DNA from: Sphyrna mokarran
Taxonomy: Eukaryota
NCBI GenBank assembly: GCA_024679065.1
Contig: JAGIQG010000009.1
Span: 107,446,001 to 107,510,000, forward strand
DNA length: 64,000 nt
Direction: 5' to 3'
Within the stretch, counting starts at the first letter, position 1. Every line of letters starts with the position of its first letter. The translations under genes and the position numbers were made by a program. The notes below the pieces were generated by a model that saw nothing but the letters and a program-made list of their open reading frames with translations, was not told the origin of the DNA and did not search any database. Below, piece after piece: positions 1-64,000 of this stretch.

Positions 1-454
1 AGATATTTTTAGCATGGAATAAACTTGTATTCAATAAATATTGAATTTTCTTTCAAACAAGTCACGGCAGAATTGTCTCCGCACTCTTTGCCGGATCCAC
101 GTCGCTGTTTCATCAAAGAAGGAAACTCCGTTCACGGGGTTGGGGATGGTAGGGGGTGGAGGTCGTTACCTGCACGCCAATCCCCAAGCTCCGCCCCATA
201 CAGAAAGCAGAGGGATTGGATGTACACTTAAATCTCCAACCCGGCATATCAAAATGGCAATTTATGTGTCATTTAGTTTTTTAGCAAGATATACCTGTAC
301 AGTAAGTACAGAGTCTTCAAACTGTTCAACCTCTCAATATGTTTGTGTGGTAAAACACGCGGGTGAAGATTGTTTTTGGAGGATTTTTGTAGGAGTGGGG
401 TGGATGGGATGTCGAGGCTACAGAAACAGCAACGTATAGCTGTCTGCAATAATA

Positions 455-742
455 TTTAACGTTAACTTAGAAGTGTCACAAGTAGACTTTCATTAATACT
501 GCAATGAAGTTACTGTGAAAATCCTGCAGTCGTCACACTCCTGCGCCTATTCGGGTACACCGAGGAAGGATTTAGCATGGCCAATGTACCTATCCAGCAT
601 ATCTTTTCAAGTGTGGGAGGAAACCGGGAGAAACGCACACACGCATCAATAGAACATGCAGCTTCCGCACCTCCAAGGCTAGAATCGAACCTGCGTCTCT
701 GGCACTGTGAGACAGCAGTGCAGTCACGTCGCCACCGTGCCT
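455..742 (-). mobile_element. tRNA-derived shark SINE (HE1-like head, variant tail)
   Basis: Head GGCACGGTGGC...CACTGCTGTCTCACAGTGCCAGAGAC...GGTTCGATTC with Pol III A/B boxes. Related copies: ~15740-16005(+), 24455-24745(+), 25533-25805(+), 30045-30315(-), 40941-41210(+), 49881-50180(+), 62950-63220(-), 63790-64000(-). Confidence 0.8.
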
Positions 743-1386
743 CCCATACCCAGTAGCTGTCTATCGAATTTGGCTGTCCGTTGTATGAATAAGCACGAAA
801 ATTATTGGCCTCCCGGCTTCTTTTGCAACATTTTTGTTCTTCATAACAATAGATGACAGAATAACATTATCAACTTGATCAGCCAACCATACAAATTTTA
901 TTTAGATAAAAGACTTCGTTTAATGGAAAATAGCTAAGCCAACATCACCAACCCTAAACGGAACACGGACATACTCAACTACCTTCTTATCCGCAACAAC
1001 AACATGTCTGGAGGAAATCTATTCCTCAATATCTCCAGGGCAAGGTACAATAATTAGAGGATTCGTTCATTGGAAAGTGATTACGATGACAGATGCCAAA
1101 TAGTGAAGACTGTACAAAAAAAGCAACTCATCACGATTCATTACTGGTCGCGATGATTAAAATCAAAATAAAGAGTGAAAGAATAAAAATAAATCACGTG
1201 TTTATGAACTTTTGAGAATAAAATAACAGCAATATGTTGCAAAAATGCGACTCTTTGATTTACAGGAAGGGAGTACTGCACCTTGCATTTTGTACCAAAG
1301 ATCATGTTCATCGAAATCTCAACCCTGAACTCACTATTGATGTACCATTTTTCAGTCCTTTCTTTGCCGATTCCATGCCTGAGGCA

Positions 1387-1629
1387 TCATTGGCGTGCCG
1401 GGGCCCGAACCACCCCGTACACTACCGGTTCTTCCATCTGGTTTCGAGGTCTCACTGGCGCCTGATTCTTGTTCTTATCACGACTTTGCCTCACTACCGC
1501 GTACACAACCTCGTCTTCTCGTTGAGGCGGGGGTTCCACCTCATGATTGTTCGTGCGATTCCTCGGTCGCTGTGTTTTGGGTTTGGCGATGCGCAGGTCA
1601 GCATAAATAACATTGTTCGACGTGTCTCC
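1387..1629 (-). CDS. Gene A terminal cytoplasmic exon with three ITIMs
   Basis: VIYADL, VVYAVV and VVYGVV fit (I/V/L/S)xYxx(L/V); long polypyrimidine tract ending in a GAG acceptor; AATAAA on the minus strand at 897-902. Confidence 0.85.
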   Translation of the reverse strand, partial: GDTSNNVIYADLRIAKPKTQRPRNRTNNHEVEPPPQREDEVVYAVVRQSRDKNKNQAPVRPRNQMEEPVVYGVVRAPARQ

Positions 1630-4600: not shown

Positions 4601-7600
4601 TAAGAATACTTGCCTGATGGCGTCAGCACACCCGAAGCTCAATGGGATAACTGGTCTTGGGTGAACCATCTGCTTGATCATGGATTCACGCCATCAGGGT
4701 ATATGCATGGTGTTATGGAGATATGGCATGGTGGGATTTTGGTCGGTGCAGACTCAATGGCCGAATAGCTATGCTGAGATTTCATCCCTGACCTCCATTC
4801 GAAAGCAAAAGTCTATTAAAAATCTACATGCTTCTATAATTGTAATATGGTATATCTTCTTACCTGTGCTTCATTTCGAGTTGTTGGTGTTCGATCTGCA
4901 AAACGTTTGAGATAAACATGTTACATTTATGTGGCGAAGAAGGCACATGGAATGAATAAGTCAGTTTTTTTCCAATGAATCAAGGAATCATTCAATAATG
5001 ATACGAAGCCAAAATAAAGTTCTACAGTCAGACCTGAATCCATAACTTTCATTGCGCAAGCGCATGTACCATAATGTGAGCTTTGGGCTAACTTGTGTAC
5101 AATGCTGGAGTCCTGGAAATTTTACAATACACAGGCAACGTTTATTACTCTGGGAATACGAGTCCATATGTCAGTGTGCAATTTAAATACAATAAATAAA
5201 TAAATATTTAATTGAAACTTGCCTCAATAACAATAACCGTGAAACCATCGACTGCGGCAAAAAACGCCCTCATTTTTTTTGATAATGTTGCTTAGGAATC
5301 GTTCTTAGTTAATGTGGTCTTCATGACACCAGGCCCATAGCAATTTATTTGACTCTGAACTGCCACCTGAAATGGCTCATTACACTATTCAGATGTACCA
5401 AACCACTGCTGGAAAGTTAATAAACTGCAGACATTCACCACCGCCTTCGCAAGGACAGTTAGGATGGGCGACATGCTAGCCTTAACAGCGACAGCCACAT
5501 CCCGTGAAAGTCAATATACATAAAGAAAATAAAACATACTTGCAAGTGCATCCTGATGTTAAATATAAAGTGGTCAGTTATAACTTAATTCTTAGCTCTA
5601 AAGACATTATAGTGCTTTACAGTGCCTATCATGTTGCAAACTGGAAATAAATAAACTAGGATAAGGAATAAGGTATTCGGCCCTTCGAGCCCATTCCATA
5701 ATTCAATATGATCATGGCTGACCTTCTATCTCAATATTACTGCTTCCTTCCTACATTTCTTCATTTTCAGCTACATCCATGTGAACCGGAGCACTGATAG
5801 AGCTCTCATCAGTCTATGCCCAAGCACAGAGGATAGTTGTCAACTCATTAATTTCTGCTGATTTTGAGGGTTATCCTCAAGGTTAGCACTGCCGTCAGCT
5901 GCTGTAATGTTCAGCGATGACTGACTGCCCTCTCTCGGAAATTCCTCAATGCTATCCACATTAGAAGGTTGTGTGCTCAGGCCCCACTCTACAACTTTCA
6001 ACACAAAGTTTGATACTGCAGAAGAAGCCCTCCAGTGTCGAAAGTGTTGTAATTTGGGATGTGAGGTGAATTCAAATCGAGGATGACCTTTCCCCCCCAA
6101 GATCTTTTAATATGAATATAAACGACTAATGGTGGTAACGATCCGAGGAGTTACCACCATCACAGCCCCACCATCAAACTCACCCCCACTCCCATTCAAT
6201 CCCGTCGCCAATATTGATCACTGAAGCAAAAGCCCACGACAAAATTATCTGATTATTATCACATTCTTGTATTTGGCAGACTGCCTTGTCGACCTCCCCA
6301 CAGTACATTGTGCAATATGTAGTTCTTGGGGCTGAAGGGACGAAGGGATCTGGGGGAGGACGAGATCTGGATATTAATTTTCATGGTCAGTCTTGATCAA
6401 AATGAACGGCAGAGCAGGTTCAGCGGGCCGACTGGCCCACTTCTGCTTCCATTTTATTATTATGAAACTATTTCATTAATTGTAAGTTGCTCATCAGTTC
6501 GGGAAATGCTATTCATGGTCACATGCCATTCGGCCCAAAACGATGCAAGCTCTTTTATCCTTTGTGAAAAATGTGCAGTCGATGCTTAGTAGCACTCAGG
6601 CATCTTCACCAGAGGCTGCTTTTAAAACCCAAACATACCCGACCACTATTCGCCAGGATAAGACATATATGAATTACCTTGACCCTTGCTGCGGCTCAAG
6701 AAGATAAGAATTGCGATTAGGAGAAGCACCAATGTAATCGCCACCAACGTTGAAGGCAAAGTGATCAATTTGTGCGTTGAAGCTTCTTCCTTGTTCTCGG
6801 CCCGACCTGTGGAATATGGAAGGATTATTAATAATAACATCCTAGTTAGCTTTTCAATGAACTGAGCCACACGTTTGGCTCATTGTAAAGTCATGTTTTA
6901 AAAGGTAAATCATATGTTTTAAGAGTTTAGTTCCCTTTTCGATTACAATGATTTGTTTTATCATTGTCACATGTTTTGGGGCACAGTTAGAAGTATTTTT
7001 TGCATGCCATAGGCACAACATACTGTTCATAGGGTGCATAGTTGAAAGGAAAGAGAGTGCAGTGTATAGTGTTACAGTCATAGGTAGTGCGTAAAGAAAG
7101 ATCAGATGCTTCACTGTGTTCTGTCGAGTTACACAAGATTATATGAATAAATCTACCTGTAAGCACGTATGAGATGTCGGATCTACAATGTTATACCAAC
7201 ACGAAGCTCGCCCTAATTCAATTAAATTTGGATAGCTGAGTATGCCCCTTGGCAAAGAAGCTGTGATATACAATATAAATTCATCCACATGTAATGATTG
7301 CCCGATATAACGATGGATGAATAGATATGTGTGCATGCATATTTGCGTCCCAACTTCAAGTCAAGGTTGTATTACTTGTCGTAATCGGTTTGAAATGGAA
7401 CAGGGAATTCACATAAACTTTGACCAGTCTGGACTATCCGAATAGACATATCCACTGGTTAAAACTTAACTATGCTACTAACAATGTCCTCAGAATTTCC
7501 AGTAGGATTTTCAAATATGATTTCCCTTTCATGAATCCATATGGTCTAATCGCTTTTATATTCTCCAGCAGTTCTGCTATTTCATCCTTCATAATAGACT

Positions 7601-10600: not shown

Positions 10601-13600
10601 GAATTATTAATTTGATCTGTTATTGAAATGAATAAATGTAAAGAAAGGCATCAGATAGGAACGTACCTTTAACAGTTACCCGTGTGGCCCTTCTACTTTC
10701 TTTGCCAATTTGTGTCAATTCCACTTCACAATAATATATTCCGGAATCATTCCGATTTGCCTCCATGACTGTAATATGGCCGCCGTTTGAAGATTGTCCT
10801 TATATCAGCAAAACTCGGCCTACAAATCCTTCAGATGTGTTCGTAATCAAACTCTTTTCACAACCTGATGCTTGCTTGTACCAGTGGAATGCAAAATCTG
10901 ATGTCATGTTTGACGCAGTAAATGTACAGGAGATTTGAAATTCCTCTCCTTCTATTACTTCGATTGTCTCTGGGCTTTGAGTTACGTTGACATCGGCAAT
11001 AGCAGCAGCTGTAATACAGAAACTCCAGTTATACTTGTTAGACAATGCTGCTCCTGTCCTCAAACTACTGTCCTGTCACCTTGCCAAGAATTCATCTGGG
11101 CTAATGGCAAATTCAAACAAAGAACTCACATCCCTAGAACTTCAGCAGGAAGATGACCGTTGAATTTTCTGCCATGAACCATTTTGTTGCTTTATTTCTA
11201 GCGACTAGGGGAATTTCACAGTTGTTTCATTGCAGTGTTAATGTAGTTGTGAGTGATAAATAAATAAAATTTAATAAGCTGCTGGGAGTAAATGATCCAT
11301 CTCCAGCTTGTGCCTGATGTTCATGAAATCGGAGATTTTGCTTCAAGTTACATAACAAAAAGTTGTTGAAAGCATTGAATATAGAATAACATGTGGGACC
11401 TTAATGAAATTCCACAATCTACCGAAGCCAACTCATAGGAACGATTGAAATCATAGAATCGCTACATTGCAGATGGAAGCCATTTGGCTCATCAAATTTT
11501 CATCGGCCACAATTGCACCCAGCCGCTGTCTGCGTAGCTCCACTTATTTAGCCTGCCAGTCCCTCTGAAACTGAGAGTCAATTTAACAAGGCCAATCAAT
11601 CTAATCAACACATCTTTGCATTTTAATAAAGAATTGTGTTACTCACGCTGTTCCCTAAATGACCACGCACAAGAAAATGATAAATTCACCCCATTGTCAC
11701 CTATAATTACAAATCTATGATGACACGTTTCCTCATTGCTTCCCATACTGGTTAAAAAAAACCGTACTCCAGGAATTCATATGCTACAGTACAGTTGCTA
11801 ATTTGCTTTGCCCAATCAATGTGTAGATTATTTTACATTCATCATGTGGTATAGGCTTCCATCACATTGCCCTTCTCTAATTGCCCTTCAACAGCGTGGC
11901 CTGCTGAACCATTTAGAATCAGAGAATCCTGATTAGTGGCCATTCGGACCACTAATCTTCACTGATCATAATGCCACCCAGGCTGCCTCCCCATAAACCA
12001 TGCATTTGCTCCAACTAGACTCCCTGACACCAAAAGGAAATTTACCATGGCTAATCCATCTAATCTGCATGAGAGGACAATTCCAGTAAACCGGAGCACT
12101 CGGAGGAAAGCCGTGCAGGCAGGGAGAATGAGCAAACTCCACACAGATAGTGAATCAAGCCGGGAATTGAGCCCAGGTCCCTGGCGCTGTGAGGCAGCAG
12201 TGCTCACCACTGTGCCACCATCGTGTTCCTTTAAACTTATCTTTTTAACAATTTTATACATTTTCTGTACCTGTATCTCATGGATTTAGATAATGAAGTT
12301 TAGAAACCTATCAGCCGTGATAAAATGGCCGAATGGTCTAATTCTGCTCCGACACCTTACGGTAATGTGGCCCTCTACATCAGGTGCTGCAGGGCCGCAA
12401 TGGTCAACATCGATAGGGGGGTAGTAAACCATAGAGGAATTTGGATACAAGAATGAAGGTCTCAAAATCCTCATCCAGGGCCGTCAATCAAATTTAGCAA
12501 AAATAGAATGATAAATGCGGTTTTATCATTAATAATAAAGGCGAATGCGGTTGTGAGCAAGTTAAGTTAAAAAACGAAATATGTAGATAACAAATGCATA
12601 GAGAAGGATTTCGCAGCATGTGCAAAAATAGTGTTAGGGCGTGGGATATAAGTCAAATGGATACGCATAATCTTCAAGATGATACGAAAAGATGGTCAGA
12701 AACCAAAAATGAGATCCAACAAGGCACCTAAGTTGTGAAGTGTCTGATTCACTTTGAGCGAATCACCACCCCTCCCCCCGCCCCCCACCACAACTGAGAC
12801 AGTGGACATGAAGGTGAGTTCGTGACGGGGACAGAAAACGATGGCATCAACTTTTCATCGAAAATGTCTGGTCACCCAATTCCACTAATTACAACCAACT
12901 CAGTTGAATAATATAATGTGCGATGTCAGGCTGCTCCCAACCGCACATCACCTGGATGGAAAAACGACTGGTTCCACACTGACCATCCCAACAGCCATAA
13001 TGCACTGCGAGGCTCTTTAGTCAGGGCTGAGTGGGCTACCCATTCATCATTACATCCAATTGCATTGGCCCTGAGCTCTATCAGTCTCGACAACGCCAGG
13101 AACGCGTGAATCGCAGCTACTTTAGATAGGCACGCAAATACCAGTGTCTTCGGAGAACTAATTCTAGGGTCTTGGTCCAAAAGGTTTTGGTGGCGGTCGG
13201 CACTGTGGGGTGTGGGAGGAGGGTGTGGGGTGTGGTGGGGGATACTGTGTAGAGTGAATTTCAGAGGGGGAGCGGGTAGTAAGAAGATGGGCGCAATTTC
13301 AATCTGGAAGGCCGCCCCAATATATACGTTTAGCCTATTTCAGCGTAAAAACCGAACTTTCGGTTCCCGTCCTTCTGCCCACGCCAAACGCATTAAGTCC
13401 AGAAACAAAAATCAGACAGTCTCATATGCAGTTTGCACATTTAACTCTATTCCCTAGGCTAATATAGAAATAACTTTAAAATATATGTTTTAATTGAGTA
13501 CAAGTTAAACAAGTAATTAATATAGAATTCGATGAATGAACATTAATTTCCATGGATTCAAAATGAATACGTTCCTCATGACGATTAACTCAGAATTACA

Positions 13601-16600
13601 GAGTGGATATCGTAGGAATAATTAGTTTGATCGGTTATTGAAAAGCATAAATGTAAAGAAAGGCAGATAAATAGGAATGCACCTTTAACAGTTACCCGTG
13701 TGCCCATTCCTGTTCCTCTGCCAGAACGCATCGTATCCAGTTCACAATAATATATCCCGGAATCATTCCGATTTGCCTCCATGACTGTAATTTGGCTCTT
13801 GTGTAAAGTTCCTTCATGTTTCAGCAAAACTCGGCCTAAAAATTCTTCAGATGTGTTCGTAATCGAACTGTTTTCACGACCTAATGTTTGCTTGTACCAG
13901 CTGAATCCAAAGATTTCTGGCTCGTTAGACGCAGTAAATGTACAGAAGATTTGAAATTCCCCTCCTTCTACTAATGCGATAAACTCTGGGCTTTGAGTTA
14001 CGTTGACGTCGGCAATAGCAGCAGCTGTAATGCAGAGATTCCAGTTATACTTGTTAGACAAACCTGCTCCTCTCCTCAAACTACTGTAGAACATAGAACA
14101 TAGAACATAGAACATAGAACAATACAGCACAGAACAGGCCCTTCGGCCTTCGATGTTGTGCCGACCAAAATAAAAAGCAATGCCCCTCCAAACTAAACCA
14201 TTCCCTTCTCTTCCATATACTTATCAATTAACCTCTTAAACGCCACCAAACTTGGCGCATCTACAACAGCTGCAGGCAGGGCATTCCACTCCCTAATCAC
14301 TCTTTGAGTAAAGAACCTACCTCTGATATCCGTCCTATAACTCATACCCCTTAATTTAAAGCTGTGTCCCCTCGTGCTAGCTTTCTCCATCCTAGGAAAA
14401 AGGCTATCACTGTCCACCCTATCTAAACCTCTAATCATCTTATATGCTTCAATAAGATCCCCTCTTAGCCGCCTCCTTTCTAACGAAAACAACCTCAAAT
14501 CCTTCAACCTCTCTTCATAGGACCTGCCCTCCATACCAGGCAACATCCTGGTAAACCTCCTCTGTACCCTCTCCAATGCCTCCACATCTTTCTTATAATG
14601 TGGCGACCAGAACTGCACACAATACTCCAAGTGCGGCCGCACTAGAGTTTTGTACAGCTGCAACATGATGCTGCGGCTCCTAAATTCAATCCCCCTACCA
14701 ATAAAAGCTAAGACTCCATATGCCTTCTTAACAACTTTATCCACTTGACTGCCTACTTTCAGGGATCTATTGACACATACACCAAGATCCTTCTGTTCCT
14801 CAACACTATTAAGAGCCCTACCATTAGCCCTATACTCTACACATTTATTGTTCCTGCCAAAGTGCATTACCTCACAATGTCCTGGCACCTTGCCAATAAT
14901 TCATCTGCGGCTAATGGCAAATTCAAACAAAGAATCCCCACTCACATCCCTTGACCTTCAATACAAGATGACCGTTGAATTTTCTACTACGAATTACTCT
15001 GAAGTGAAGAGTTCTTTCTTCCCCTACAGCCTTTAAGCCTGAGCAATTTCGTGAGATCCACATCACATCCAAATTCGCATCTGAGCATGCGCATGCTGGA
15101 TATTGTCATCTCCTTAATGCCTATCGAGTCAGTCTGAGATTGTTAAAAGCTAATTCAAGTACAATACTGCGATTTCTGGAATTCTGACATAAAAGCACAA
15201 ATGCTGAATAAACTCAGCAGATCTGGCAGCATCTCTGGAGAGGGAAACAAGAGGTATCGTTGCGAGTCCAACGACGCCTCCTACAATGGACTAAAAACGC
15301 TCACTGTGTCGATTACCACAGATGCGGCCAGACCTGCTCAGTTTATCCAGAGTTTTCTGTTTTTATATGTGTTATAGGCCAGTGTTCAAGGTCGTGTTCG
15401 CAGAGATCTCCCGGCACTTCTCTAGTCATTTCATGAGTAGTGGTGGTGAACATGTTAGGAACAGCACCAGGCAACACTAAATGTCAGGTGCCAACCTGGT
15501 GTCGATACAGCACATGTAAGCTAAACGATAGAAACAGCATGTTATGAATATTGATCTATCCAAAACTAACGTTCTCATCCAACCTCCGCAGAGTGGCCGC
15601 AACCGGTAGTGAATGTTTGTGAGTGATTAAATAATTAACAGGAGAATGAGGTTCTATAAACCTCCCCCATCCTCAATACGGGAATCCGACGCTTGAGTAC
15701 AAAGGAATGAGCGGAACATTTGCAACCACTTTTAATCGGGCAGTACCGCAGGATAGGGTTAGCACTGTTGCTGCTTCACAACGCTAGGGACTCGGGTTGG
15801 ATTCCCGACGCGGGTCATTGTCTATGTGGAGTCTGCACATCCTCCCCACATCTGCTTGGGTTTCCACAGGTACTCCGGTTTTCTCCCACATCTGAAAGAC
15901 GTGCTAGCTAGATGCATTGACCTGAACAGGCGCTGGACTGTGAGAACTAGAGGAATTTCAGAGTAACTTCATTGTAGTATTAATGTACTTGTGTCTAAAA
16001 AAATAAGGATCTGTTGAGAGTGGATGATCCATCCCGGCTTGTTGCTGACGTTCACAAAATCGGAGATTTTGCTACAAATTACTCGATTCACTTCACGTAA
16101 CAAGAAGTTGCCGAAATCCCAGAATACAGCACAAGATGTGAGATCTGATCACATTCATAGTGCACAACTATTGATTTGTGTCCAGTACTGATTATACTAC
16201 AAGAACACAGGAATCGTCAACAGGCGTAGGCTACTCGACGTTTCGAACCTTCCCCATCATTCAATCATACATAGGCTAATCTAAGGATGGATTGAACAGC
16301 ACGTTATTGTCTGTCCATCGTAGCCCGTGACTCACTCAGTGATCAATAGTATGTCAACGTGAGCCTAGAACATAATCAATGACACATACTCTGGAGGATA
16401 GAATTTCACAGATTAGAGCTCGTCTGAGAAAAGATAATGTTATCCTTGCTCAGAATCGTAGATTCAGAGGAGGCTATTCAGCCCATCGAGTCGACACTGA
16501 CTCTCCTGCAGAACATTTTATCCTAGCCCTCTTTCCTGTTAGACCTCCGTAACTCCCCACATTTCCCATGGCTAATCCATCCTTAAAAGAAAAGGGCATC

Positions 16601-19319: not shown

Positions 19320-19326
<7 letters not shown>

Positions 19327-19362
<36 letters not shown>

Positions 19363-20154: not shown

Positions 20155-20253
20155 TTTAACTTGATGGAGAAGTTTACAATTGACTTCTGCAATTAATTTT
20201 CGCCTATATTGTAAAAAAGTTGTTTGTAGAACAAATACAGGAAGCATGACGTC
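20155..20253 (-). promoter_or_regulatory. Putative promoter and non-coding first exon of gene A (ETS GGAAG plus CRE-like TGACGTC; donor at 20154)
   Basis: The leader exon has an acceptor 13 nt before the ATG, so an upstream exon must exist. The GTAAGT donor and the GGAAG(C/T)ATGACGTCT motif are conserved in all three genes. Confidence 0.45.
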
Positions 20254-23042: not shown

Positions 23043-23250
23043 TTCCATCAGAATGTTGTGATGTAGAGATGCCGGCGTTGGACTGGGGTAGTAAGAACTC
23101 AGTAAGAATTTAGCAACACCAATTTTAAATCCAACCGATTTACTTGATAGTAAATTTGCGAGCTTTCAACACTCGTGTGCCTTCGTCAGGCATTTAAATC
23201 CAATCGGTTGGATTTAAAATTGGTGTTGCTAAATTCCATCAGAATGTTGT
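23043..23250. mobile_element. Small palindromic insertion with a perfect 34-bp inverted repeat and 17-bp flanking direct repeats
   Basis: IR at 23107-23140 and 23202-23235; TTCCATCAGAATGTTGT at 23043 and 23234; empty site in the paralog (~47845). Confidence 0.75.
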
Positions 23251-24819: not shown

Positions 24820-25005
24820 TTACCTTGGGATGCCTGCCAGCCGTGCTAGCTTCTTCATGCTCTGAGTGAGAAGCTTAGGAGAACCTGGAAACTCGCAGCA
24901 ATATACAAGATATATCGTTATCATGATTAACACTGCAAAGCCTCACTCCCAACACAATCAGTTGCCTTTGCAGCGAACGTCCGGTGCCGTCGTGCTGCTC
25001 CCGGC
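24820..25005 (-). pseudogene. Orphan frameshifted copy of the activating TM exon
   Basis: Paralog of 50262-50455 (GREQHDGTGRSLQRQLIVLGVRL...) with an 8-nt deletion just after the TM Arg; it has no leader or V exon of its own. Confidence 0.8.
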
Positions 25006-44735: not shown

Positions 44736-44834
44736 TTTAATTAGGAAGAGAAATGTGCAGCCAACTTCTGCAATTATTTTTCGCCTGTACTGTAAAAGAA
44801 TTATTTATAGAAAAAATACGGGAAGCATGACGTC
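44736..44834 (-). promoter_or_regulatory. Putative promoter and first exon of gene B
   Basis: Paralog of 20155-20253 with the same donor and ETS/CRE motif. Confidence 0.45.
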
Positions 44835-47800: not shown

Positions 47801-47997
47801 ATGATTAAAAACATACTTCTTAAAGGCACAGCAGTATGACATGTACCATCGGACTGTTGTCAGATATGGCTAACTCTTATGTGGCTGCAGGTCCACCAAA
47901 ACAGTAACCCACTTTTATTTTATGTAAGGTCTCCTGATTAACTTGAATGGAGAACTGTAAATTCACCAGTGAAAGACAGATTCCAGGAAAATATAGG

Positions 47998-48230
47998 GCA
48001 TAGATAGATAGGCAGTCGGACAGATTGGCAGGCAGACAGATAGATGGACAGACAGGCAGAGAAACAAATAGATAGATAGATGGATAGATCAATGAATTGA
48101 GAGATAGACAGGCTGGCAGGCAGACAGACTGACAGACAGACGGATGGATGGATAGATAGATAGATAGATAGGTAGATAGATAGATAGATAGATAGATAGA
48201 AACGCAGACAGATAGATAAATAGATAGATG
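47998..48230. repeat. Compound (GATA/GACA/GATG)n microsatellite
   Basis: Seen directly; much shorter in the paralog at ~23350-23400. Confidence 0.95.
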
Positions 48231-50261
48231 ATTGGCTTATTGAATAAACATTCTGGCACTGTTTCCGATGTATGGTGAAGAAAAAATGAATTAACCATAA
48301 TCCACAACAAAGCTTCAGACAAACATCACAAAGCCTGTCTAAGATAATAAAAGTTACCAATAGTGACGTGCAAACATCCTTACTTTATCGAATAGAAGAA
48401 AAGGTTCATCTGAACTATGTGTTTTATTTTAAAGTCCACAGTTCCTACATTGCCAGATTGAATTCATTCAGGTTTCATTCTTTGATTGTAATGAAAGAGT
48501 CTGTGACAATAATCGGTCATTTCCCTTTAAACGGATCTACTTTAAAAAGATATATGTGGCAATATTCGTTACAATTAGAATTTTACATATGGTCCAGTTA
48601 CAATCAGTTTTATATTGTTTAGTTTTGATTTAAGCTAGATTTTTTCTCTGGTGCATATGCGTTACCAGATCTTTAGAATCATAGAAACCCTCCAGCATTC
48701 TGCCCATCTGCATCGACTCTCTGAAAGAGCATCTCACCATGGCCCAATCCCCATAAACCTGAGTATTTGCCAATCCATCCACGTAACATCCACATCTATG
48801 CACACTGCGTGGTAATTTAGCATGACCAATCAACCTAACCTCTACATTTTTGGACTGTGGGGCGATAGCGTGCAAACTCCAGACTGTCACCCAAATTCGG
48901 ATGGCCAGCGTGCCACCGTGCTACCATGTCAGCATGTCTTTGATAAGTCAAAATGACAAGAGGTAGGGAGTGACAAGCTCAATTATTACGAGGTGATGAT
49001 CCCGTATCGAATCGCATCATGAAACATGGTGGCAATACATAAAAGGTTAGCTACAAAATACCATTTGCGTCAAAGGTGTTGTCAAATCTCATTGTTGGTT
49101 AATGATAGAAGGGCCCCTGTTGTTCATAGCCTAAGTCGAATCTCATGTAAGTTTCCTTCACTTGCAGGGTGAGCGTGCAAAGTGGAGTAAATTCAATGAT
49201 CAACAGCAAAGTTAACAACAAATACTTAGAGAAAAGGACAAGAAAAGTCGAAAATAAATTCATGTTTCATTCTCTGCGATGACGAGTCATGCTTTGTTAA
49301 GTTAGAATTCTCCTTGCTTTTCCCAGTAAACTGAATAATCATCAAATAAGCATCCCCCCTTCCTGTATTGCAGGCTAACATCGGAATTTGAACTATAGAG
49401 CTGCATACGTTATATATTTCATAGCACATATTTACATTTAATGATAATGAAGGAGAAAATATAACAATTGTTCGCTAATAATGAGTGTTAGATCGTACAC
49501 TTATGCTTTTATGTGTTTTTTGTTCTTATATGATTGACATTATCTGACTCTTGTCATCTTTTCCTGTCTTCGATGGGGGAAAAATACGACATGGTGTAAG
49601 AGCGTTTACAAGTATCAATGTCAATTTTTTTTCTCTGCAATTAGGAGATAAAATTACTTAAAGTGGAACCTGGGACATATGAAATTGTCAATGACTGCGC
49701 CATCTAATGGACTTTGTACAATAACGCAGAATACAATGTTTTATTAGTAAACCATTTAAAGATATAAAGGGTTGGGGGGGGGCAGCGGGAGAGCTAATGA
49801 AGGGCATATGATCGTACCCGAACACACGTGATATTGGCATACATGCTTCTTTCCGTTTGCATTTAACACCTAGAGCCTTGGGCAGCATAGTGGCCCAGTA
49901 GTTAGCACTGCTACCTCACACAGCCAGGGACCCGAGTTTGATTCCTGGCTCGGGTCACTGTCTGTATGGAGCTTTCACGTGCTCCCCGTGTCTGCGTGGG
50001 CTTCCTCTGGGTGTTCCAGTTTCCTGTGACAGAATGAAAGACGTGCTGGTCTGGGGCATTGGCCATGCTAAATTTTCCCAGAATGTACCCGACCAGGCAC
50101 TGGAGAATGGCGACCTATGGATTTTCACAGTGACTTCAGTGTAATGGTGATCCTACTTGAGGCGCTAATAACTAAACTAAAAAAAAAACACTTCTGCAGT
50201 CACTTTATAATCAACTGCAAATACAATTTGTCCAAAATGTCAATCGGTTTAGTTTAACTTT

Positions 50262-50455
50262 TTACCATGAGATGCTGCCAGCTGTGGTACCTTCTTCACG
50301 CTCTGCAGCGAGAAGCTTCGGAGAACCTCGAAACTCGCAGCAATATACGAGAGATATCGTTATTATGATTAACGCAGCAAACACTGCAAGCCTCACTCCC
50401 ATCGCAATCAGCTGCCTTTGCAGCGAATATCTCGTGTTATCCGGTTGCTCCCATC
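50262..50455 (-). CDS. Gene C stalk/TM(Arg)/short tail exon
   Basis: TTCTCTACAG acceptor, phase 1 matching the V donor, hydrophobic helix with one Arg, TAA at 50262-50264, minus-strand AATAAA at 49740-49745. Confidence 0.8.
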
Positions 50456-53400: not shown

Positions 53401-54776
53401 CTAATATAGAAATAACTTTGAATTATATGCTTTAATGGTGTACAAGTTAAACAAATAATTAATATAGAAATGGATAAATGAGCGTTAATCTTGATGGATT
53501 CAAAATGAACACTTTCCTCGTGACTTCTTTCTCAGAACTATATAGTGAATATTTTAGGAATAATTAGTTTGATCTGTTATTGAAAAGAAAAAGTTTAAAG
53601 AAAGGCAGATGGTAGCATATAGAAACGTACCTTTAACAGTTACCCGTGTGCCCCTTCCAGTTCCTTTGCCAATTAAGAACAAAACGACTTCACAATAATA
53701 CATCCCGGAATCATTCCGATTTGCCTCCATGATTGTAATTTGGCTGTATTTTAAAGATGGTTCACGTTTCTCCAAAACTCGGCCTACAAATCTTTCAGAT
53801 TTGTTCAAAAACAAATTCTCTTTCCGACCTGATACCTCCTTGTACCAGTAGAATACAAAAACTGATATCTTGTTTGACGCAGTAAATGTACAGGAGATTT
53901 GAAATTTCCCTCCTTCTGTTGCTTCGATAATCTCTGGGCTTTGAATTACTTTGACGTCGGCAATAGCAGCAGCTGTAATACAGAAATTCCAGTTATACTT
54001 GTTAGACAAACCTGCTCCTCTCCTCAAACTATTGTCCTGGCACCTTGCCAATAATTCATCTGCAAATTCATTCAAAGAATCCCTACGACCATCCCTTGAT
54101 CTTCAGTAGGAAGATGACCACTGAATTTTCAATTTGAACCATTTTGGTGTGAACAATTCCTTCTTCCCCTGCAGCCTTTAACCCCGAGCAATTTTCTGAG
54201 ACTGTTAAAAGGCAATACAAGTACAATACTGCGATTTCTGGAAATCCGACATTAAAACACAAATGCTGAATAAAAATCCGGCAGCGTCTCTGGAGAGGGA
54301 AACAGGAGTTAACGTTACCAGGAGTCCAACGACGTCTCCGACAATGGACTGGAAACGATAGATGTATCGATAACCACAGATGTGGCTAGATCTGCTCACT
54401 TTAGCCAGAGTCTTCTGTTTTTATTTGTGTTAACAGCCAATGTTAAACTCCTCCGGGCACTTCTCTAATCGTTTCATAAGAAGTGGTATTGCACACGTTA
54501 CGAGCAGCACCAGGCAACACTAAGTATCAAGTGACGACCTGGTGTCGATACAAACATGCAAACTAAACGATAAAAGCAACATGTTATCAATACTGATCTA
54601 TCCAAAACTAACAGATCACATCTAACCTCTGCACAGTTGCCCCAACAACTTCTCAAGGACAATTAGTATGTTGTCCTTTTTGGTGAAGTCCACTTCCCAT
54701 TAATAAATGTAACAAGAAATACAACTAAGTTTCAAGACTTACCAGAAATTAGCAATATACTCATAACTGGATACAT
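50262..54776 (-). CDS. NCR3: Gene C: NKp30/NCR3-like activating-type receptor (TM arginine, short tail without ITIM); join(54743-54776,53631-53972,50262-50455), ~189 aa
   Basis: 570 nt open frame: MYPVMSILLISAAAIA|DVKVIQSP...YYCEVVLFLIGKGTGRGTRVTVK-GWEQPDNTRYSLQRQLIAMGVRLAVFAALIIITISLVYCCEFRGSPKLLAAEREEGTTAGSISW*. The single VJ domain, short stalk, N-terminal TM Arg and short tail match mammalian NKp30 architecture. The symbol denotes family, not proven orthology. Confidence 0.78.
50740..51115 (+). mobile_element. Penelope-like element fragment (GIY-YIG remnant)
   Basis: 51021-51113 translates as VDIGGTKQ*LGDGFVEHFWIICKQDPDLLVA, similar to the YIGETKRRLGDRFAEHL region of PLE endonucleases; partial paralog ~25300-25530. 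Confidence 0.6.
53631..53972 (-). CDS. Gene C Ig V-set (VJ) exon
   Basis: 342 nt, open frame, DSGMYYC...GKGTGRGTRVTV. Confidence 0.9.
54743..54776 (-). CDS. Gene C leader exon (MYPVMSILLIS)
   Basis: 34 coding nt, G|GTAAGT donor, paralogous to the other leaders. Confidence 0.85.
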
Positions 54777-57700
54777 GTTTCAATTTTGCCTGTGAATATA
54801 ATAAGGGAAACAGGGTTATAACGACAATTTATATTTGCATTCATTTTTGCAGCTATAATTGCAAGTTCCTTACACATGACAATGCACGCTTTTGCTCAAC
54901 CCTTTATCTCCAATTTGGTCGTTCATTTATTTACAAATTTAGTTTTGCATTTATGGAGGAGAAAGTTTGTGACGTTCCCGTTCTCGTCCGCCTTAGATTA
55001 GAGCAACATCTGTACAAACCTAGGCAGGAAATGGAGACATTCCAGGATGGGCACAATCAAACATGAGTTGGATGGGTCCAACGGTTCGTTTCCGAATCAT
55101 AATTTGTACATACTTAGACGAGAATCTGCCACTTCTAGAGTTTTCATCACAATTGAAAATAGAACTCACATTTAATTTTATATAACATATATTTTTCATG
55201 GTATTGATTAACAGGTTGACGACCTGAAAACTCAGTAGTATAAGGATGGACAGTTTGAGCCTTTACTTAATGGAAAATGAGAACTGATCTTCTTAACGCA
55301 TACGATCATAAGGCAGCATAATACGCCACAAAACGAAAAGATGTTTTCACTTCTGAAAGAAACTAGTACTAAAGGACACAGTTTCAGGATAAGGTGATGT
55401 TTGAGAAGGAAATAATGAGCATCGCATCCCCTTCCACACCCCGAGCAAAATGTTTTTAGTATATGAAATTCTCTTGCTAAAATATAGTGAGGGCTGAGTC
55501 GTTGAATTCAATCAAGACCGAGTTAGAGACATTTGGATAGATAATCGAGTCAAAGGCTATGGGGAGAGGGCGGCAATATGGAGTTGAGACCCTTTCAAGA
55601 TTCGACATGATCTTATTGAATGGTGGAGCAGTTTCGAATAGCTGAATAGTATATTTTTGCTCCTGAATCTTATCATGGAATCCCTGCAGAGGAGAAGGAA
55701 GCCCAATCAGCATACACCGATTCTCTCACAAGGTATTCAAATAAGGAACTCTCCTTCGCCCTATCCCATAACAACACACATTTACCAGGGCACATCTTTG
55801 CACTGTCGCAGGAACCCGGAGCACTCAGAGGAAACTGACATGCACGCTCCACTCAGACAGTCACCCAAGGCTGGAATTGAACCCGGCTTCCTAGCGCTGT
55901 GAGGCAGCAGTGCAAATCACTGTGCCACTGTGCTAAAAGCGTTATTGTGCTTAGTTAACTGCTCGAACATTTCACACACAACGGTGTTTTCAACATCCAA
56001 ATCTAGAGTCAGGACTGCAGAAATTGTTCCCTTTGTTACTCTTCCCATAACGTTCTTAGAATTCTTTACATTCACCTGAAAGAACAGAAACGTCCTCGAT
56101 TTAGCCGCATATATAAAAAAGACACTTTTCTGAGGTGAACATCGCTGCTTGAGCCAGCATTTACTGCCCTTCCCTAGCTTCCCTCAATTTCAGGGGACAC
56201 TTGAGAGTCAACTACATTGTTTTGGGTCTGGAGTGACTTATAGGCCAGCCCGCGTAAGGATGACGGATTCCCTTCCCTAAAGGACATTAGTGAGCCAGAC
56301 GGATTTTGCCGACAATCGATAATGGTTTCACGAAAACATTTGAGTTTGAAATCCAGATTAGTGAATTCAAGTTTCACCATCTAGCGATCTGAACCCGGGC
56401 ACACAGATATCGTCCTGAGTTACGAGTCAAATGTCAATAGCACTACACCACTGCCTCCCCTACCCCCGCCATGCGTTCCTACCTGAGAGTATTTTGTGAC
56501 CAAGTGGGACTTCAACCCATCAACTTCTGATTAAACGGCGAGACCTTTCGAAATCGTAACTTGTGGCGAATTGCGATTCCAGTAACTTCAGTAGGCCCGA
56601 CTATTCGGCATGTGCTACATAAGTGGACTTATGTAATTCTGTGTGTTCCTGTCCCAGATTGACGTTTATTTCCTTCTTGTAGTTTCAAGTCCAAGGGTGC
56701 ATTAGAGAGGCTTGGTGAGATGCACTTGGAACCCGGAACTCTTGTAAGACATGTTTTAACAGAAGTCTAAAAGAGACTCACCAACGCTGGAAAGGCGGAA
56801 GTGTTTCAGACGGGGAATTTGAAGACAGACAAAAGCAACAGCAACTGTGTTCTCATGCTGGGTGGGGGGCGAAGTGTGGTGAAAATTAGAGACAAAGAAT
56901 TGATGAAATGACCACTTAGAGCTAAAGGATGACTCTTGGGTTAAGGGCAGACTTAGAAATAGGGTGACGAATTTCTGATTCGAGTTATTGGTGAGCCAAG
57001 GTGCAGTTAAATTCAACACATAACGGAACCCGAACTGTCTCTATCAAAACTCTCTCTGTTTGTGTGTATGTCGTGTATACGTATATTCATTTTGGGATGT
57101 GGGTGACTCCGGAAAGACCACCATTTCTTACCCACTCCTAAGTGCCTTTGGAAGGGTGGTTGGACGAATCTACTCGTATACGGATAAGAATTTAGCGTTA
57201 GCTTATAACAGAAATTAACAGTGTATAAAGTGAAAGCACGAACAGTAGAAACACATCAAATAAGGAAGTGGCTTAGTATAAAGACTAGAGGAGCATTTCG
57301 GAGAAAGCGGCTAATGCTCTGAAGAGGAGGCTCACTGACTCGATAAGTTAACTGTATTTTTCTTTCTCCACAGATGATGGCAGACTCGCTGAGTTTTTTT
57401 TTCTGCACTTCTTATTTCTATTTTATATTTTTAGCACCCGCAGCACTTTGCTTCAATTTTAATGTTCTGGAGGCATAGTTACAGCTTAAATTCATAAACT
57501 AATTCAAACAATCCGGAATATAATGTTTTTTTCAGTGATGATGACCATGAATCTATTGTCGTATTGTCGTTAAAATCCATTTACTTTACTAATGTCCATT
57601 AGGGAAAGAAATCCACCATCTTTACTCGTTCATATCTACATGTTGGTAGAAACCCTTCGAGTTTTGCTCGACTCTTAAGTTCCCTTTAAGATGGCCTCGT

Positions 57701-57861
57701 GAGTCTCCCACGCCAATGGAAATTTGGGTAACAAATGTGAGCCTTACTTTCCATTTCTCTCTATTTAAAATCGAAGTTATCGAACAGTAAAAAGGTATGC
57801 AGTTAAATTGTGAACATGACTTCTGCTTTACTAAGAAACAGGACGATAAAAATCTACTTAC

Positions 57862-57959
57862 GTTAACTTGACAGAGAAATTTACTGTCGACTTCTGCAAT
57901 TATCTTTCACATGTACTATTTAAAAAAGTTTCTGGAACAAATACGGGAAGTATGACGTC
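57862..57959 (-). promoter_or_regulatory. Putative promoter and first exon of gene C
   Basis: Paralog of 20155-20253 with the same donor and ETS/CRE motif. Confidence 0.45.
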
Positions 57960-59636
57960 TCACAGCAATTAACGAGGCGCGTCAGTATTTTCTAGAAGAA
58001 CAAGAAAGAGAGATTAGGAACTGAAATTCATGGCAATTGCAGACAACATGGCCTAATAACTCCATATGGAGTATCTCTGAATAGAGTAGAATAGGATCCA
58101 GATCCCCTAGAGCGATTATGATTATTCCAAGGAATAAATGACACTGACACTGCTTAGGTGCATTAACCATGAGAAATTCTCCATCAGTATATCCGAACAG
58201 GTTCAGGAGGGTGGCGATTGAGCGATTTTCACAGTAACTTCATTGCTGATTTTGTCGATATGATCATTGTTTAATTCAAGTTGTGGCTAGATGCATATAC
58301 ATACTTAACTATTTAAGTATAGTAACAATATCGAATGCCACTCTTATTGACATTTCAGTCTCCAAGTATTTGTCAATATACTGCTGCAAGTTTCATTGCT
58401 TTGAAAGTTCAAGAGATGACTGAATCCTCGCGGAATGGCCAAAGTAACCAGATGCGGAATTAGAAACTGCAGTTACCATGAGAAAAAAGAGATTTTAAAA
58501 ATTCTTGTTTGTGTTTTATGAAAAGCTATGCTTATATAGTTTATAAAAATAGGTAAAACCTCGCCCTCTACAAGCATACGAATGAGGAGCAGGAGTAGGC
58601 CATTCGGCCCCTTTGAGCCTGCTTTATCATTGAATAAAAGCATGGCTTATTTGCCTGTAGCCTCAGCTCCACATCCCAAGTGCCACAATTAGCATTTGTC
58701 TGTTTTGTTAGCATCGACCTAAATTAGGCTTATGATTGTCCATTAATTCTACCTCCAAGGAAAAGTGTTCTAAAGACTAAAGAACCTCTGAGAGAATACA
58801 AAATCTTCTCCTCCCTCACCTGGAATGCGAGACCATTTATTTTAAAAATCTATATCTTCATCCTGGTGTCTCCCACAAGCAAAACCGGTTCGAGGGAGAG
58901 CTGGGCTGAAGTATCATTCAAATGTGAGTCAACAAGAAGAATCATGAAATAGCGCCGGCCACTGTAATATCAGAAAACATGTTTTCTGTGGGATTAATCA
59001 GCAATAGCAAGGAATAGCTCATCAATGTGGCCACATAGCTTTCAGTTTCGTACAACAGCGCCATCGCGTGGAGAATTTTAGAGCTGCCCGAAATATTGCA
59101 ATAGGTGCCAAAATCATTGTATATGCAATTGGTACATGAGACTCAAGTCAGACCGAGATGGAATTTTTTGAGGCTTTGGCTGACAAGGTGGAGGCTTGAT
59201 GAATTTTAACTTTTAGATGCCTTCTGAGGTATTGCGAGATCTGGAAACTTCCAAAGTTAAGGCTACCACGCTGGTCACCAGAAGCATACGTCACGACAGC
59301 AACGAGATATTAAAGGGAAGACCAGGTACGAGCTGCTGCCATAGTTCTGGACAAGTCTAGAATACAACTTACCGTCAGTAAGTATTGAGTTTTCACTGTA
59401 TCGGAGACTGCATGAGATCTCTACCCTAAGATGCTAGCAGTTAAAACTGGTTCAGATAGCAACCAGCAAGGACATATCAAAGTACCCCTACTCACTGGCC
59501 TAGAAAATTTACAGCAGATAATACTTTCTGGGTTTCCTGAGACACGCAGTGTTGGTGCATCTGAATGAGCGACTTTGGCGAGATCAGAGATCAAATATCC
59601 AGATTCTTTCTTCAGAAAAAATGTTGTTTATTATGA

Positions 59637-59937: not shown

Positions 59938-62900
59938 GTATTTGTTAAGTTTAGGCTGCAGTCCAATATGGAGATGGACTTACAGAGGAAGAGTTTCAGT
60001 TCCGGTAGTTAAGACACTGTTTTTCGAATTTAAAGTAGGTCTTGCTATTCTTTGCTTATAGTCTTTTAGCTGCCTTTGCTGACAATATTAAATCTTGTTT
60101 TCGAGGTCAACATTAACGTCTAGGCAACGGAAACGATAAAATTTCAGTTCCGCAGTGTTAACAACGGAAATTACACGGATTATAGTAGAATTTCCATTTT
60201 CAGTTCTGTAATGCTTAACCCCTATCCCGGAGCAATTAAGTTTGACAATTTCATCTATCTCATCAAAACATCTTGTCCTTTCACTCGGGAGGATTACATG
60301 CTTATTGCCAATTAACGCAAGTACATGGGTGTGCCTGAAGAGGGAGCAAGCGGAGCATTTGGATCCTTCATGGCCTAACATGCTCCGTGGCACTAACGGG
60401 TCTGTTAACCATATTATTTCAGCTTTCATTTATGATTTAATTTTTGTTTTATGCTATATTCCTTTAAGGGACATTCACTTTAATTTGTCCCTCAGTTTAT
60501 TTGATTCAGTTTATTTAGTTATTTGGTTTACTTCAAAATAATAAACCGCTTATGTCAAAAATCTCATTTTCATCTGACCTTAGCAAGTTCCCTAAAAGAG
60601 GTAGCATTAATTTTACTTTCTGTTTGTTTTTTTCCATATTGCGATGCACTACTGGAGTTTCCGATTAATTTCAACGCACAATGGTTAGCACTGCTGCCTC
60701 ATAATGCCAGGAACACGGTTTCGAGTCCTGGCCTCGGGTTACTGTGTGGAGTTTGCACATTCTCCTCGTGTTTGCATGGGATTCCTCTGGGTGTTGTGCT
60801 TTCCTCTTACAATCCAATGACGTGCTCATTAAGTGGATTGGCCATGTGTTAAGTGGACTAGCTAGGGTAAGTGCATGGGGTTGTGCGGATCGGACTTGGG
60901 TGGGATTTTGGCTGATGCAGATTCGATGGGCCGTATGGCCTCCTTCTGCACCACTGGGCTCTATGACCCAAATGTAGATGCTAATTTCCAGCATTATGTA
61001 TGGCATGGAGGATGGTAGGCTCAAAAATCATCATATTGCTTCAACCACTGAATGATTTCCATGCTTGTTGTCCAAAGCGAACCTGTTGCTCCTTTTACAC
61101 TGGTCTTCCCCAAACCTTTATCTCCCACATGAAACTACTTTTCTCTATAGAGCAATTTGATGAGTATTCCACATTAACACTGCAAGATTTAATTGCTAAT
61201 GCATTCGGTTTGACATGGTTGATCATTCTTGTTTTGCACGGTTGCCTTGGCTACAGAATTCCCTCTAAATTAACTGTTGGGGCATGTTTTATAGAATATT
61301 TCTCAGTATAGCAGACATGGAGTGATAAGTAAAAATTATGTTTATTTCATTCTTTGTAGGTTTTAGTCAATAAAGTGATTGCAGATTCATTGATGGATTT
61401 TTACTTCACAGTCATCTATCCAAAGTAAGTATGATAAGTATTGTTGATGTCTCGGTAGAAATCAAACTACTTCCTTCCCTATATCTAGGTCATCACTTGC
61501 CGACAGCTTTCCACATTCCACTAGAAATTTGTTTAGCCCAATTATGCCTACTTGCTTATCCAGTAACTGCTTCCTGCAACAACATGGGCTCATTACTCTA
61601 AAGGATATTTCGCAGCTTTATGAGTTAAATATGTCAGCGTGTTGTCGTGATAAACTGTTAGTTTTAACTACCCGATTTTAGTTGCTCCCGTGATAATGTT
61701 TTAACAACAGAAAATAGTCATTCTTCCGTGTCTGATTTGCCTTGCAGGTGTCTAACTCGTGGACATTTGTTTTTGCCTTTGGGTACTTGTTCCCCTTTTC
61801 GATTACAATGGTGTAGTATTATTGCCCCTGGACAAGTAATCCAGAGACCCAGTGAAATTTTCTGAGGACCCGAGTTGGAATCCTTCCAAGGCATATGGTG
61901 ATATTTGAATTGAATAAAAATCTCCAATTCAAAGTCCAATGATGATCGTGAAATCATTATTTATTGTTGGAAAAACCCAACTGGTACACTAAAGTCTTTT
62001 GGGGAAGGAAATCTGCCGTCCTTTCCCGTCTCAGTAAGAAGCTTCACAACAAAGTCCAACAGGTTTATTTGGTATCATGGTCGTTCAGAGTGCTGCTCTA
62101 TCATCATGTGAGTGGCTTATGTGATCTGGCCTACATGCGACTACAGCCCACAGTAATATGGTTGACATTAAATGCCCTCAGGGATGGGCAATAAATGCTG
62201 GCTCCACCGACGACGCTCATATCCTATAAACGAAAGAATTTTTTTAAAAAAATGCAGGAAATGGAGAGAAGGGTTCTCGACTATTTTCAAATATAAACCT
62301 CTCTTGGTGATGTGAGTACAACTTAAGGAGAGCATTTTTACGTTTTTGCTTTTGAATTTTCTATCCCTTGTTAAAGAAATCAAAAACGCTTGCATTGTAA
62401 CACATATTTTTCTTCTGCATAAAGATGAGTGATACAACCAGGCATGTATTGATAGTTTTGCTTCGGGTACACAATATGAACTTTGTTGCAACACTGGGCA
62501 ATAATTCAATCAAAATTTTGAGCATCGTCTTCATCCGAAATTTCACCTTTTTGGGGCCGCGGCAATGGCACAGGTGGAACGATCCCTTTAGAGGCGACCC
62601 CTGGTTTGCTTACACGGTGTTCACCGGCTTTTCGGTCAATCCTGTGATCTAAGCTTAAAAGTTCTGCAGCTCACTGTCCCTGCAGTTGCCGCTAGAGTCC
62701 TCCCTGGAGATATCCAACAGCGGCTGATGATGCCCCAACCTCTTAGGGTACCTTCCATGTCGTTGTTGAACCCGAGATAGGAAGATGTCAAATCTAAACA
62801 ACTCCTCATTGACGCTCACCAGAAGCTTAAGTAGACGAAAAGAGGAGGTTATTGGAGAAGGCAAAGAAACGAGAATAGATCTTGGACTTAATGTATAAAA

Positions 62901-63309
62901 ACAGGCAAGAAAGGTTCTCGAAAGAAATATTTGATCGAAGTAAAAAAATATTTATTATTAGGTTCATTAACACTGCAATGAAGTTGCTGTGAAAAATTCA
63001 CTAGGCACCACACTCCAGCGCCTGTTCAGGTACACTGAGCGAGAATTGAGCATGGCCAATGCACCTAAACAGCATCTGTTTTGGATTGTGGGAGGAAGAC
63101 AGAGTGCCCAGAGGAAACCCACACACAAACATGGGGAGAACGTGCAGACTCCATACAGCCAGTGGCTGAAGCCCGAAATAGAACTTGGATCCCTGCCGCT
63201 GGAAGCAGCATTCTCCACAAATCTTGCTCGTCCAGAGAACGCAGGCTGAGGTGATTTACCATGGCCTTGAAACAGTTTGAATACATTTTGAGAAAATGCT
63301 TCATCAGCA

Positions 63310-64000
63310 GAGAACCTTCTAGCAGGAAATGAACTTGTATTCAATAAATATTAAATTTTCCTTCAAACAAATCATAGCAGGATTGTCTCTGCACACTTTA
63401 CCAGATCCACGTCGCAGTTACGATGTGTTTTCGTCAAAGAAGGAAACTCCGTTTACGGGGATGGGGATAGTAGGGGATGGAGGAGATGGAGGTTGTTACC
63501 TACCCGCCAATCCCCAAGCTCAGTGTCATACAGAGAACAGATAGATTGAATTTACACCTAAATGTCTAGTCTGGCATCTCAAAATGGCAATTTATGCGTC
63601 ATTTAGTTTTTTGGCAAGATATACCTGTGAAGTAAATGCAGGGTCTTCAAATTGTTCAACCTCTCAGTATGCTTGTGTGGTAAAACACGCGGGTGAAGAT
63701 TGTTTCTGGAGGATTTTTGTAGTAGTGGGGTGCGTGGGATGTGGAAGCAGCAGAGACAGCAACATCTAGCTTTCTGCAATAATGCTAAATGTTTACTTAG
63801 TCATGTCACAAGAAGACTTACATTAATACTGCAATGAAGTTACTGTGAAGAATCCCCCAGCCGTCACACTCCTGCTCCTGTTCGGGTATACTGAGGGAGA
63901 ATTTAGCACGGCCAATGCAACGCGTCTTTAGAACTGTGGGAGGAAAGCGGGGAAAACACATGCAGGTACGAAGAGAAAGTGCAGACTCCGCACATCCCAG
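63310..64000. repeat. Paralog of window positions 1-680 (3' flank of an inhibitory-type gene)
   Basis: AACTTGTATTCAATAAATATT...TGTGTGGTAAAACACGCGGGTGAAGATTGTTT and the following SINE are collinear with 1-680. Confidence 0.9.

Follow-up and report, generated by a model that had tools for sequence, protein, structure and literature searches.

How do receptors with opposite signalling tails come to stand side by side in a shark genome, and what keeps their ligand-binding domains alike? The question is raised by a 64,000-nucleotide stretch of Sphyrna mokarran contig JAGIQG010000009.1 (the window), which carries on its minus strand, in this order, an activating-type gene (C), an inhibitory-type gene (B), an orphan activating transmembrane (TM) exon and a second inhibitory-type gene (A). 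We consider it likely that the window is a paired-receptor array of the shark NCR3 (NKp30) family, shaped by cassette duplication, by loss and by conversion of the variable (V) exon. Six-frame and motif scans, together with tblastn searches using the window's own exons, gave four V exons, two inhibitory-type TM exons, two exons with immunoreceptor tyrosine-based inhibitory motifs (ITIMs) and two activating TM exons; tblastn found no further exon copies in the window. Gene C would encode 189 amino acids (leader, V domain, TM with Arg and short tail), B 258 with three ITIMs, and A 259 with three ITIMs, provided that a stop-containing second V exon (V2) is skipped. All three have GT-AG splice sites and no internal stop. 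The order C, B, orphan TM, A had been proposed in a first-pass annotation and was recovered by the motif scans and tblastn alike (Table 1).

Self-BLAST of the window revealed two colinear blocks of ~25 kb each (682-25530 and 25974-50976), 15-20% diverged, and a third, partial copy at 51139-58886. Both ~25-kb units contain an inhibitory gene, the spacer and an activating TM, and homology covers 22084/24849 bases of unit 1 and 19515/25003 of unit 2. It runs without a break from the activating V-TM intron through the TM exon, spacer and promoter into the entire inhibitory gene and its 3' flank. Because this colinear homology crosses from one gene into the next in both units, the activating-plus-inhibitory pair is supported as the probable unit of duplication. 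The first-pass annotation had proposed the same, and the likeness it reported between the two spacers (50260-44830 against 24820-20250) was confirmed on alignment. That annotation had also raised the prospect of an assembly artefact; an assembly duplicate or haplotig is excluded by the 15-22% divergence seen in 20 of the 20 blocks measured.

Birth and death of cassettes, also claimed earlier, is visible in the window itself as a deletion and as pseudo-exons. At 25974 the 3' flank of B ends, and after 444 bp an activating intron starts that is equivalent to the one at 50976. Relative to the C unit ~13 kb is gone, comprising the promoter, leader and V exon of a second activating gene, and the junction is as expected if an alternating array lost one of its activating genes. 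The flank that B lacks follows A and recurs upstream of C; therefore, the array would once have read inhibitory-activating-inhibitory-activating-inhibitory, with a period near 38 kb. A short repeat with a tRNA head, resembling a short interspersed element (SINE), occurs in many copies across the window, including at the deletion junction (25531-25804).

The two ends of the window also match each other (7-677 against 63317-64000; 80.5% over 692 columns in self-BLAST), with a divergence of 16.1% that is similar to A vs. B. This homology had been read from 63310-64000 against 1-680 as an inhibitory 3' flank, and that reading stands: 7-677 is a genuine 3' flank, lying beyond the poly(A) signal of A. 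Since 7-470 matches solely 63317-63800 within the window, the match is not just the shared SINE-like repeat. We rejected a mere repeat on this ground, with uniqueness judged inside one window and a genome-wide repeat still possible. Another inhibitory ITIM exon is strongly predicted at ~64.7-64.95 kb, with the array running past 64000.

The second strand of evidence concerns the V exons of C and B, which are 94% identical in nucleotides and 87% in amino acids. They differ at 20 of 333 sites (6%), compared to 443 of 2092 (~21%) in the downstream intron (p = 7e-13), and directly past the 3' edge of the exon B resembles A again. Among the other five V pairs, only C and V2 of A (A2, with V1 as A1) show a weak drop in the exon (p = 0.03). 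Informative sites favour grouping C with B by 21:1:0 in the exon, against 32:30:31 in the intron (p = 9e-8), and the trees conflict: the exon tree joins C and B at 100/99, whereas the intron tree weakly joins B and A2 (74/71). Nine residues are common to C and B vs. A1 and A2, four of them found in none of 12 outgroups. The approximately unbiased (AU) test rejects monophyly of the window's inhibitory V domains (p = 0.001) and likewise of the six activating-type ones (p = 0.0002); these groups followed prior expectation, but a smaller tree had already been inspected beforehand. We regard the exon-limited similarity of C and B as the signature of probable gene conversion between opposing receptors.

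At the protein level, the V domains have diverged faster than the signalling tail. The ratio of nonsynonymous to synonymous divergence (dN/dS) is 1.05-2.68 in all six V-domain pairs vs. 0.66 for the ITIM exon, and nonsynonymous divergence is 16-23% vs. 7% (p ≤ 0.003). The proportion of nonsynonymous differences (pN) significantly exceeds that of synonymous ones (pS) in the two pairs put to this test, selected for ranking highest (p about 0.015). This pattern fits diversifying selection but hinges on low dS.

Sequence comparisons assign the genes to the elasmobranch NCR3/NKp30 family. The V exon of C matches Mustelus asterias LOC144497825 (63%) and a Scyliorhinus canicula NCR3-like protein (53%), two of 157 candidates; a search with the Mustelus protein matched four of 1280, and the closest matches of the window genes are carcharhiniform sharks. 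A protein library search gave 284 proteins at E ≤ 0.001, of which 150 were listed; the 14 single-stretch matches of at least 50 bits among these were named and the other 136 were not. These 14, the best among the matches listed, are 13 elasmobranch proteins and one from reedfish, and comprise eight NCR3 or NCR3-like, five uncharacterised and one IgSF11-like. With a family profile of 21 sequences, human NKp30 is the best single-domain PDB match (81.8 bits), and that profile includes NCR3-named proteins. The V model is 25-29% identical to NKp30 chains. A tree groups the window V domains with Mustelus at 81/83, a grouping unresolved in a larger tree, and the white shark homologue is XP_041068169.1.

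The architecture agrees with this assignment. In C, B and V1, one unsplit exon of the VJ type encodes a single V-set domain, and its J-like strand carries GxG, the glycines of which V2 has lost. The TM Arg of C aligns with a Lys in NCR3 of nurse shark and in ray proteins. TM homologues of C are found in 5 of 18 aligned proteins (nurse shark QTT61904.1, one from S. torazame and three from rays), all with Lys, and a homologous ITIM-type tail in 8 of the 18. S. torazame has proteins of both types, each on a contig of the same length. These TM homologues were recovered via V-domain matches, as a search with the C TM exon itself gave 0 of 49 candidates at E ≤ 1. Three of six Pfam queries, namely the ITIM exon, the activating TM exon and a LINE-like open reading frame described below, returned no match, and the 64-kb window holds no major histocompatibility complex (MHC) class III marker genes. 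We rejected the CD28 family, as there is no PPP or EIP motif in the complementarity-determining region 3 (CDR3) and no named match is a CD28-family protein. Rearranging T-cell receptor (TCR) or immunoglobulin (Ig) V segments were likewise rejected, as each V exon contains a J-like strand and a splice donor. Neither the family name, nor the B/C V-exon conversion, nor the dead second V exon of A was present in the first-pass annotation.

Homology of C to the inhibitory genes B and A is confined to 58886-51139, which suggests an origin of C by joining, with an inhibitory gene giving the 5' half and the TM exon being an old activating one. Blocks homologous to the C promoter precede B (44279-45687) and A (19710-21190), at divergences of 15.8% and 18.2%, respectively. 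The earlier label of an "inhibitory promoter" therefore fails, as the block is common to all three genes, activating C included.

Table 1. Positions and supporting evidence for the features of the window
Feature	Position	Strand	Evidence or remark
3' flank of A	7..677	-	Homologous to the far window end
A terminal exon, three ITIMs	1387..1629	-	Poly(A) signal at 902
A 32-nt mini-exon	4864..4895	-	A-B alignment
A uncharged TM exon	6678..6806	-	Motif scan
A V2 pseudo-exon	10667..11008	-	In-frame stop; both G-strand GxG glycines lost; splice sites intact
A junction, V1-TM intron to leader-V intron remnant ahead of V2	11400..11430		~4 bp microhomology
A V1 exon, open frame	13683..14024	-	Pfam V-set, E 1.8e-11
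A leader, coding part	16860..16893	-	Three-way alignment
Activating-to-inhibitory spacer, unit 1	20250..24820	-	Aligned with the unit-2 spacer
Orphan activating TM exon	24820..25005	-	Frameshifted; no promoter, leader or V; two-frame tblastn match to C TM
Deletion junction	25530..25974		B 3' flank, 444-bp insert (SINE-like repeat), activating V-TM intron
B terminal exon, three ITIMs	26688..26939	-	Poly(A) signal at 26194
B 32-nt cytoplasmic mini-exon	32736..32767	-	A-B alignment; matches Mustelus RefSeq model
B uncharged TM exon	34559..34684	-	Motif scan
B V exon	39697..40029	-	94% nucleotide identity to C V; 3-codon deletion
B leader, coding part	42450..42483	-	Three-way alignment
Activating-to-inhibitory spacer, unit 2	44830..50260	-	78.4% identity to 20250-24820 over 4431 columns
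C activating-type TM/tail exon	50262..50455	-	Arg near TM outer end, short tail, no ITIM
C V exon, single VJ-type Ig V domain	53631..53972	-	Pfam V-set, E 1e-13; AlphaFold2 (AF2) mean predicted local distance difference test (pLDDT) 88.3
C leader, coding part, ATG to phase-1 donor	54743..54776	-	Three-way alignment; homologous N-terminus in Mustelus RefSeq model
C promoter and probable non-coding exon 1	57417..58886	-	Conserved donor at ~57862, on which the probable exon-1 role rests
3' flank of predicted off-window inhibitory gene	63317..64000	-	Homologous to 7-677

Gene A differs from its earlier description in that it carries a second V exon, interrupted by an in-frame stop. A working two-V receptor is unlikely, given this stop and the loss of both G-strand glycines, which are invariant in all 21 rows of the family alignment (V2 left out). 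We lean towards A being a fusion in which one inhibitory gene supplied the 5' half and another the 3' half, a further cassette having been deleted; the alternative is an old internal duplication of the V exon. The introns of V1 and V2 are 18.9% diverged, no closer to each other than each is to B (18.3% and 17.2%), and a remnant of leader-V intron precedes V2. Between units 1 and 2, moreover, the 5' half is 18.0% diverged vs. 15.9% for the 3' half (p = 2e-4). However, confidence intervals overlap, more of the 3' half is exon, and the support in the intron tree is just 74/71. Overall, the fusion has modest support. The 3' fragment of a long interspersed element (LINE), presumably CR1-like by its motif, lies at 14087-14874, 63 bp upstream of the V1 acceptor, with a 7-mer repeat tail and an open 235-codon frame. 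This insertion could affect the splicing of A.

It is also conceivable, if rather unlikely, that the array is mostly decaying, with only C, or C and B, functional and the cassettes a by-product of unequal crossover in a region rich in repeats, with little functional pairing. The orphan TM exon, the dead V2 with its intact splice sites, the LINE-like insertion so near an acceptor, the three-residue deletion in the B V exon and a nonsynonymous V divergence near that of introns would all sit well with such decay. Yet the exons of B, C and A (minus V2) are all open and have kept GT-AG sites despite 15-20% flanking divergence, the ITIM exon has a dN/dS of 0.66, and the poly(A) signals are conserved.

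Several results weigh against reading the window as a paired-receptor array of the NCR3 family with V-exon conversion. The expression, protein and signalling of A, B and C are predicted from sequence. A is functional only with V2 skipped, and its status depends on splicing because the stop-containing V2 retains its splice sites. B lacks three codons at ~39850, in a strand motif conserved across the family, and may be impaired. As for the family, a PDB search with a single V sequence does not put NKp30 on top (it scores 32 bits and is outranked by some TCR and antibody domains), Foldseek with the AF2 V model ranks NKp30 fifth and does not separate it from nanobodies and PD-1, and the profile that does rank it first is partly circular. 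As for the conversion, 18 of the 21 informative sites joining C and B are nonsynonymous and only three synonymous, and C and B differ at 4 of 73 synonymous sites, not significantly below the pooled A-B exons (p = 0.078). C and A1 likewise show little synonymous divergence (7/75), perhaps from older conversions, and synonymous sites alone do not single out the C-B pair. Finally, C-B was not alone in a run-permutation test: B-A2 likewise outdid each of 2000 shuffles, and p was 0.015 for C-A2.

These synonymous results open the way to another account, in which B and C came to look alike through common purifying selection or convergence on one ligand, with no transfer of sequence. We hold this to be improbable. 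The nonsynonymous majority among the shared sites and the weak synonymous support are what it has in its favour, but the likeness stops at the 3' edge of the exon, the shared residues are derived and missing from the outgroups, 21 shared informative sites face one conflicting site, and the synonymous 4/73 compares with 20% divergence in the intron (p = 4e-4). Least probable of all is that the genes were duplicated singly and alternate by chance with no pair cassette, for which one can cite the single complete activating gene and the single full copy of the inhibitory-to-activating spacer (58886-63317) in the window; this is opposed by the colinear homology of both units, which passes from the activating TM into the next gene and reaches the 3' flank of the inhibitory gene, and by a further inhibitory 3' flank upstream of C.

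Independently of these arguments, the exon calls can be compared with the Mustelus RefSeq model, which has a leader, TM, mini-exon and ITIM tail as in the window genes and is an independent check on them. The terminal ITIM exons of B (26940-26942) and A (1630-1632) use a rare GAG acceptor, with junction residues that agree with the same model. An ATG-bearing hydrophobic element at ~56855/19128 was rejected as the leader, as it has a stop in C, is in the wrong phase in A and is deleted in B; the true leaders are at 54776 (C), 42483 (B) and 16893 (A). This ATG-hydrophobic-donor element stands in intron 1 of C (~56780-56856) and A (~19080-19128), broken in both, and was lost from B by a ~920-bp deletion; it is possibly an untranslated exon or a relic of an older leader. 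Donor-like sequences lie near the ends of both activating TM exons (50262-50290; ~24820) and could provide alternative tails, by analogy with human NKp30 isoforms. The last intron of B has a 540-bp inversion relative to A (window 29504-30045 vs. 4080-4596) and, at 31114-32107, a ~1-kb element with 209-bp inverted arms of 84% identity, perhaps a non-autonomous DNA transposon.

Shark NCR3 clusters are already known, as is the homogenisation of ligand-binding domains in mammalian receptor pairs. Kinlein et al. in 2021 are said to have found eight MHC-linked NCR3 subtypes in nurse shark. The shark family shares with the window a single unsplit VJ-type V exon, a TM exon and a multigene cluster. By contrast, C has Arg where the five other activating-type proteins have Lys, and its V domain falls in an inhibitory-type clade, distant from the activating V domains of nurse shark and rays. 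In white shark, five NCR3 loci are listed between AIF1 and DDAH2 on MHC chromosome 19 (PMC10751288). The homologue XP_041068169.1 is on a contig of 115,848,844 bp, which by its length alone may be this chromosome, where the gene list ends at 115,613,256. Two adjacent minus-strand NCR3 loci at 102.16-102.19 Mb of NC_054485.1 measure 11.3 and 16.8 kb with a gap of 5.6 kb (PMC10751288), and appear to resemble the C-B geometry in size and gap. The white shark loci are on mixed strands, whereas the window has strict tandem alternation with pseudogenised copies.

Human NKp30 likewise has one IgV domain and a TM Arg as in C, and this Arg couples to CD3-zeta/FcR-gamma (PMC6514059). In humans NCR3 is single-copy and is not known to have a paralogue with ITIMs. 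The CD28 family shares the IgV-TM-tail layout and the G-strand GxG; its members (CD28H, CD28HL1-3, CD28X and PD-1) have PPP or EIP in the CDR3 region, PD-1 excepted (PMC11599192), and this motif is missing from the window V sequences.

Paired receptors are encoded by linked genes whose ectodomains resemble each other while their signalling modules are opposed, and B, with its ITIMs, and C, with its Arg-bearing TM, have this form. In KIR clusters, receptors of the Ig superfamily, both activating and inhibitory, stand head to tail, and deletions and hybrid genes occur; KIR contain two or three domains of the C2 type, map to the leukocyte receptor complex and bind MHC class I. The window genes have a single V-set domain instead, and the likeness is an analogy in layout only. 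In KLRC/NKG2, Ly49 and PIR, ligand-binding domains are homogenised between opposing receptors ("merohomogenization"; PMC3210942), and Siglec-11/16, CD300A/C and CEACAM are reported to be further such cases. As in these mammalian systems, the opposing signalling exons are kept, the ligand-binding exon is converted and birth and death is evident; for B/C, homogenisation confined to the ligand-binding exon comes with the synonymous and run-permutation caveats given above. Unlike them, the window represents an unrelated family and lineage, a cartilaginous fish with a VJ-type V domain. Every element thus has a precedent and the surprise is moderate. Among the titles and abstracts covered by our literature search, with most subscription papers outside its scope, none dealt with shark NCR3 cassettes in alternation or with V-exon conversion among such cassettes.

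We propose that a ~38-kb activating-plus-inhibitory cassette was tandemly duplicated, that its copies would then have been degraded by deletion and stop codons, and that unequal crossover may add and remove cassettes. The V exon would be copied between neighbouring activating and inhibitory genes by gene conversion or double crossover, in a tract of roughly 400 bp. ITIMs recruit SHP phosphatases, and A and B might do so (SHP-type) via their three ITIMs, while C could signal via an adaptor bearing the immunoreceptor tyrosine-based activation motif (FcR-gamma or CD3-zeta) through its TM Arg. B and C may bind the same or a near-identical ligand, putatively a B7-H6-like protein, with opposite outputs, C countering a ligand or mimic that engages B. 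Conversion would keep B and C matched, as reported for NKG2, Ly49 and PIR (PMC3210942).

More tentatively, in some sharks an MHC-linked, non-rearranging NKp30 gene may have become a KIR/Ly49-like system, with an activating member built from an inhibitory promoter, leader and V exon and an ancient activating TM, recurrent V conversion, and a cassette number varying between haplotypes. Natural killer (NK) receptors are difficult to follow across vertebrates, NKp30 being the one that can be traced back to sharks, and in mammals NKp30 is activating. Unsplit VJ genes have been discussed as relatives of the antigen-receptor precursor (PMC12227049, PMC10751288). The mammalian paired-receptor pattern would then have arisen independently from an MHC-linked unsplit VJ gene, with B and C as a concrete pair in cartilaginous fish for shared ligand and opposite signalling. 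If this were true, the homogenisation of paired receptors would reach back to the oldest jawed-vertebrate lineage, and a candidate for missing-self recognition in sharks would be at hand.

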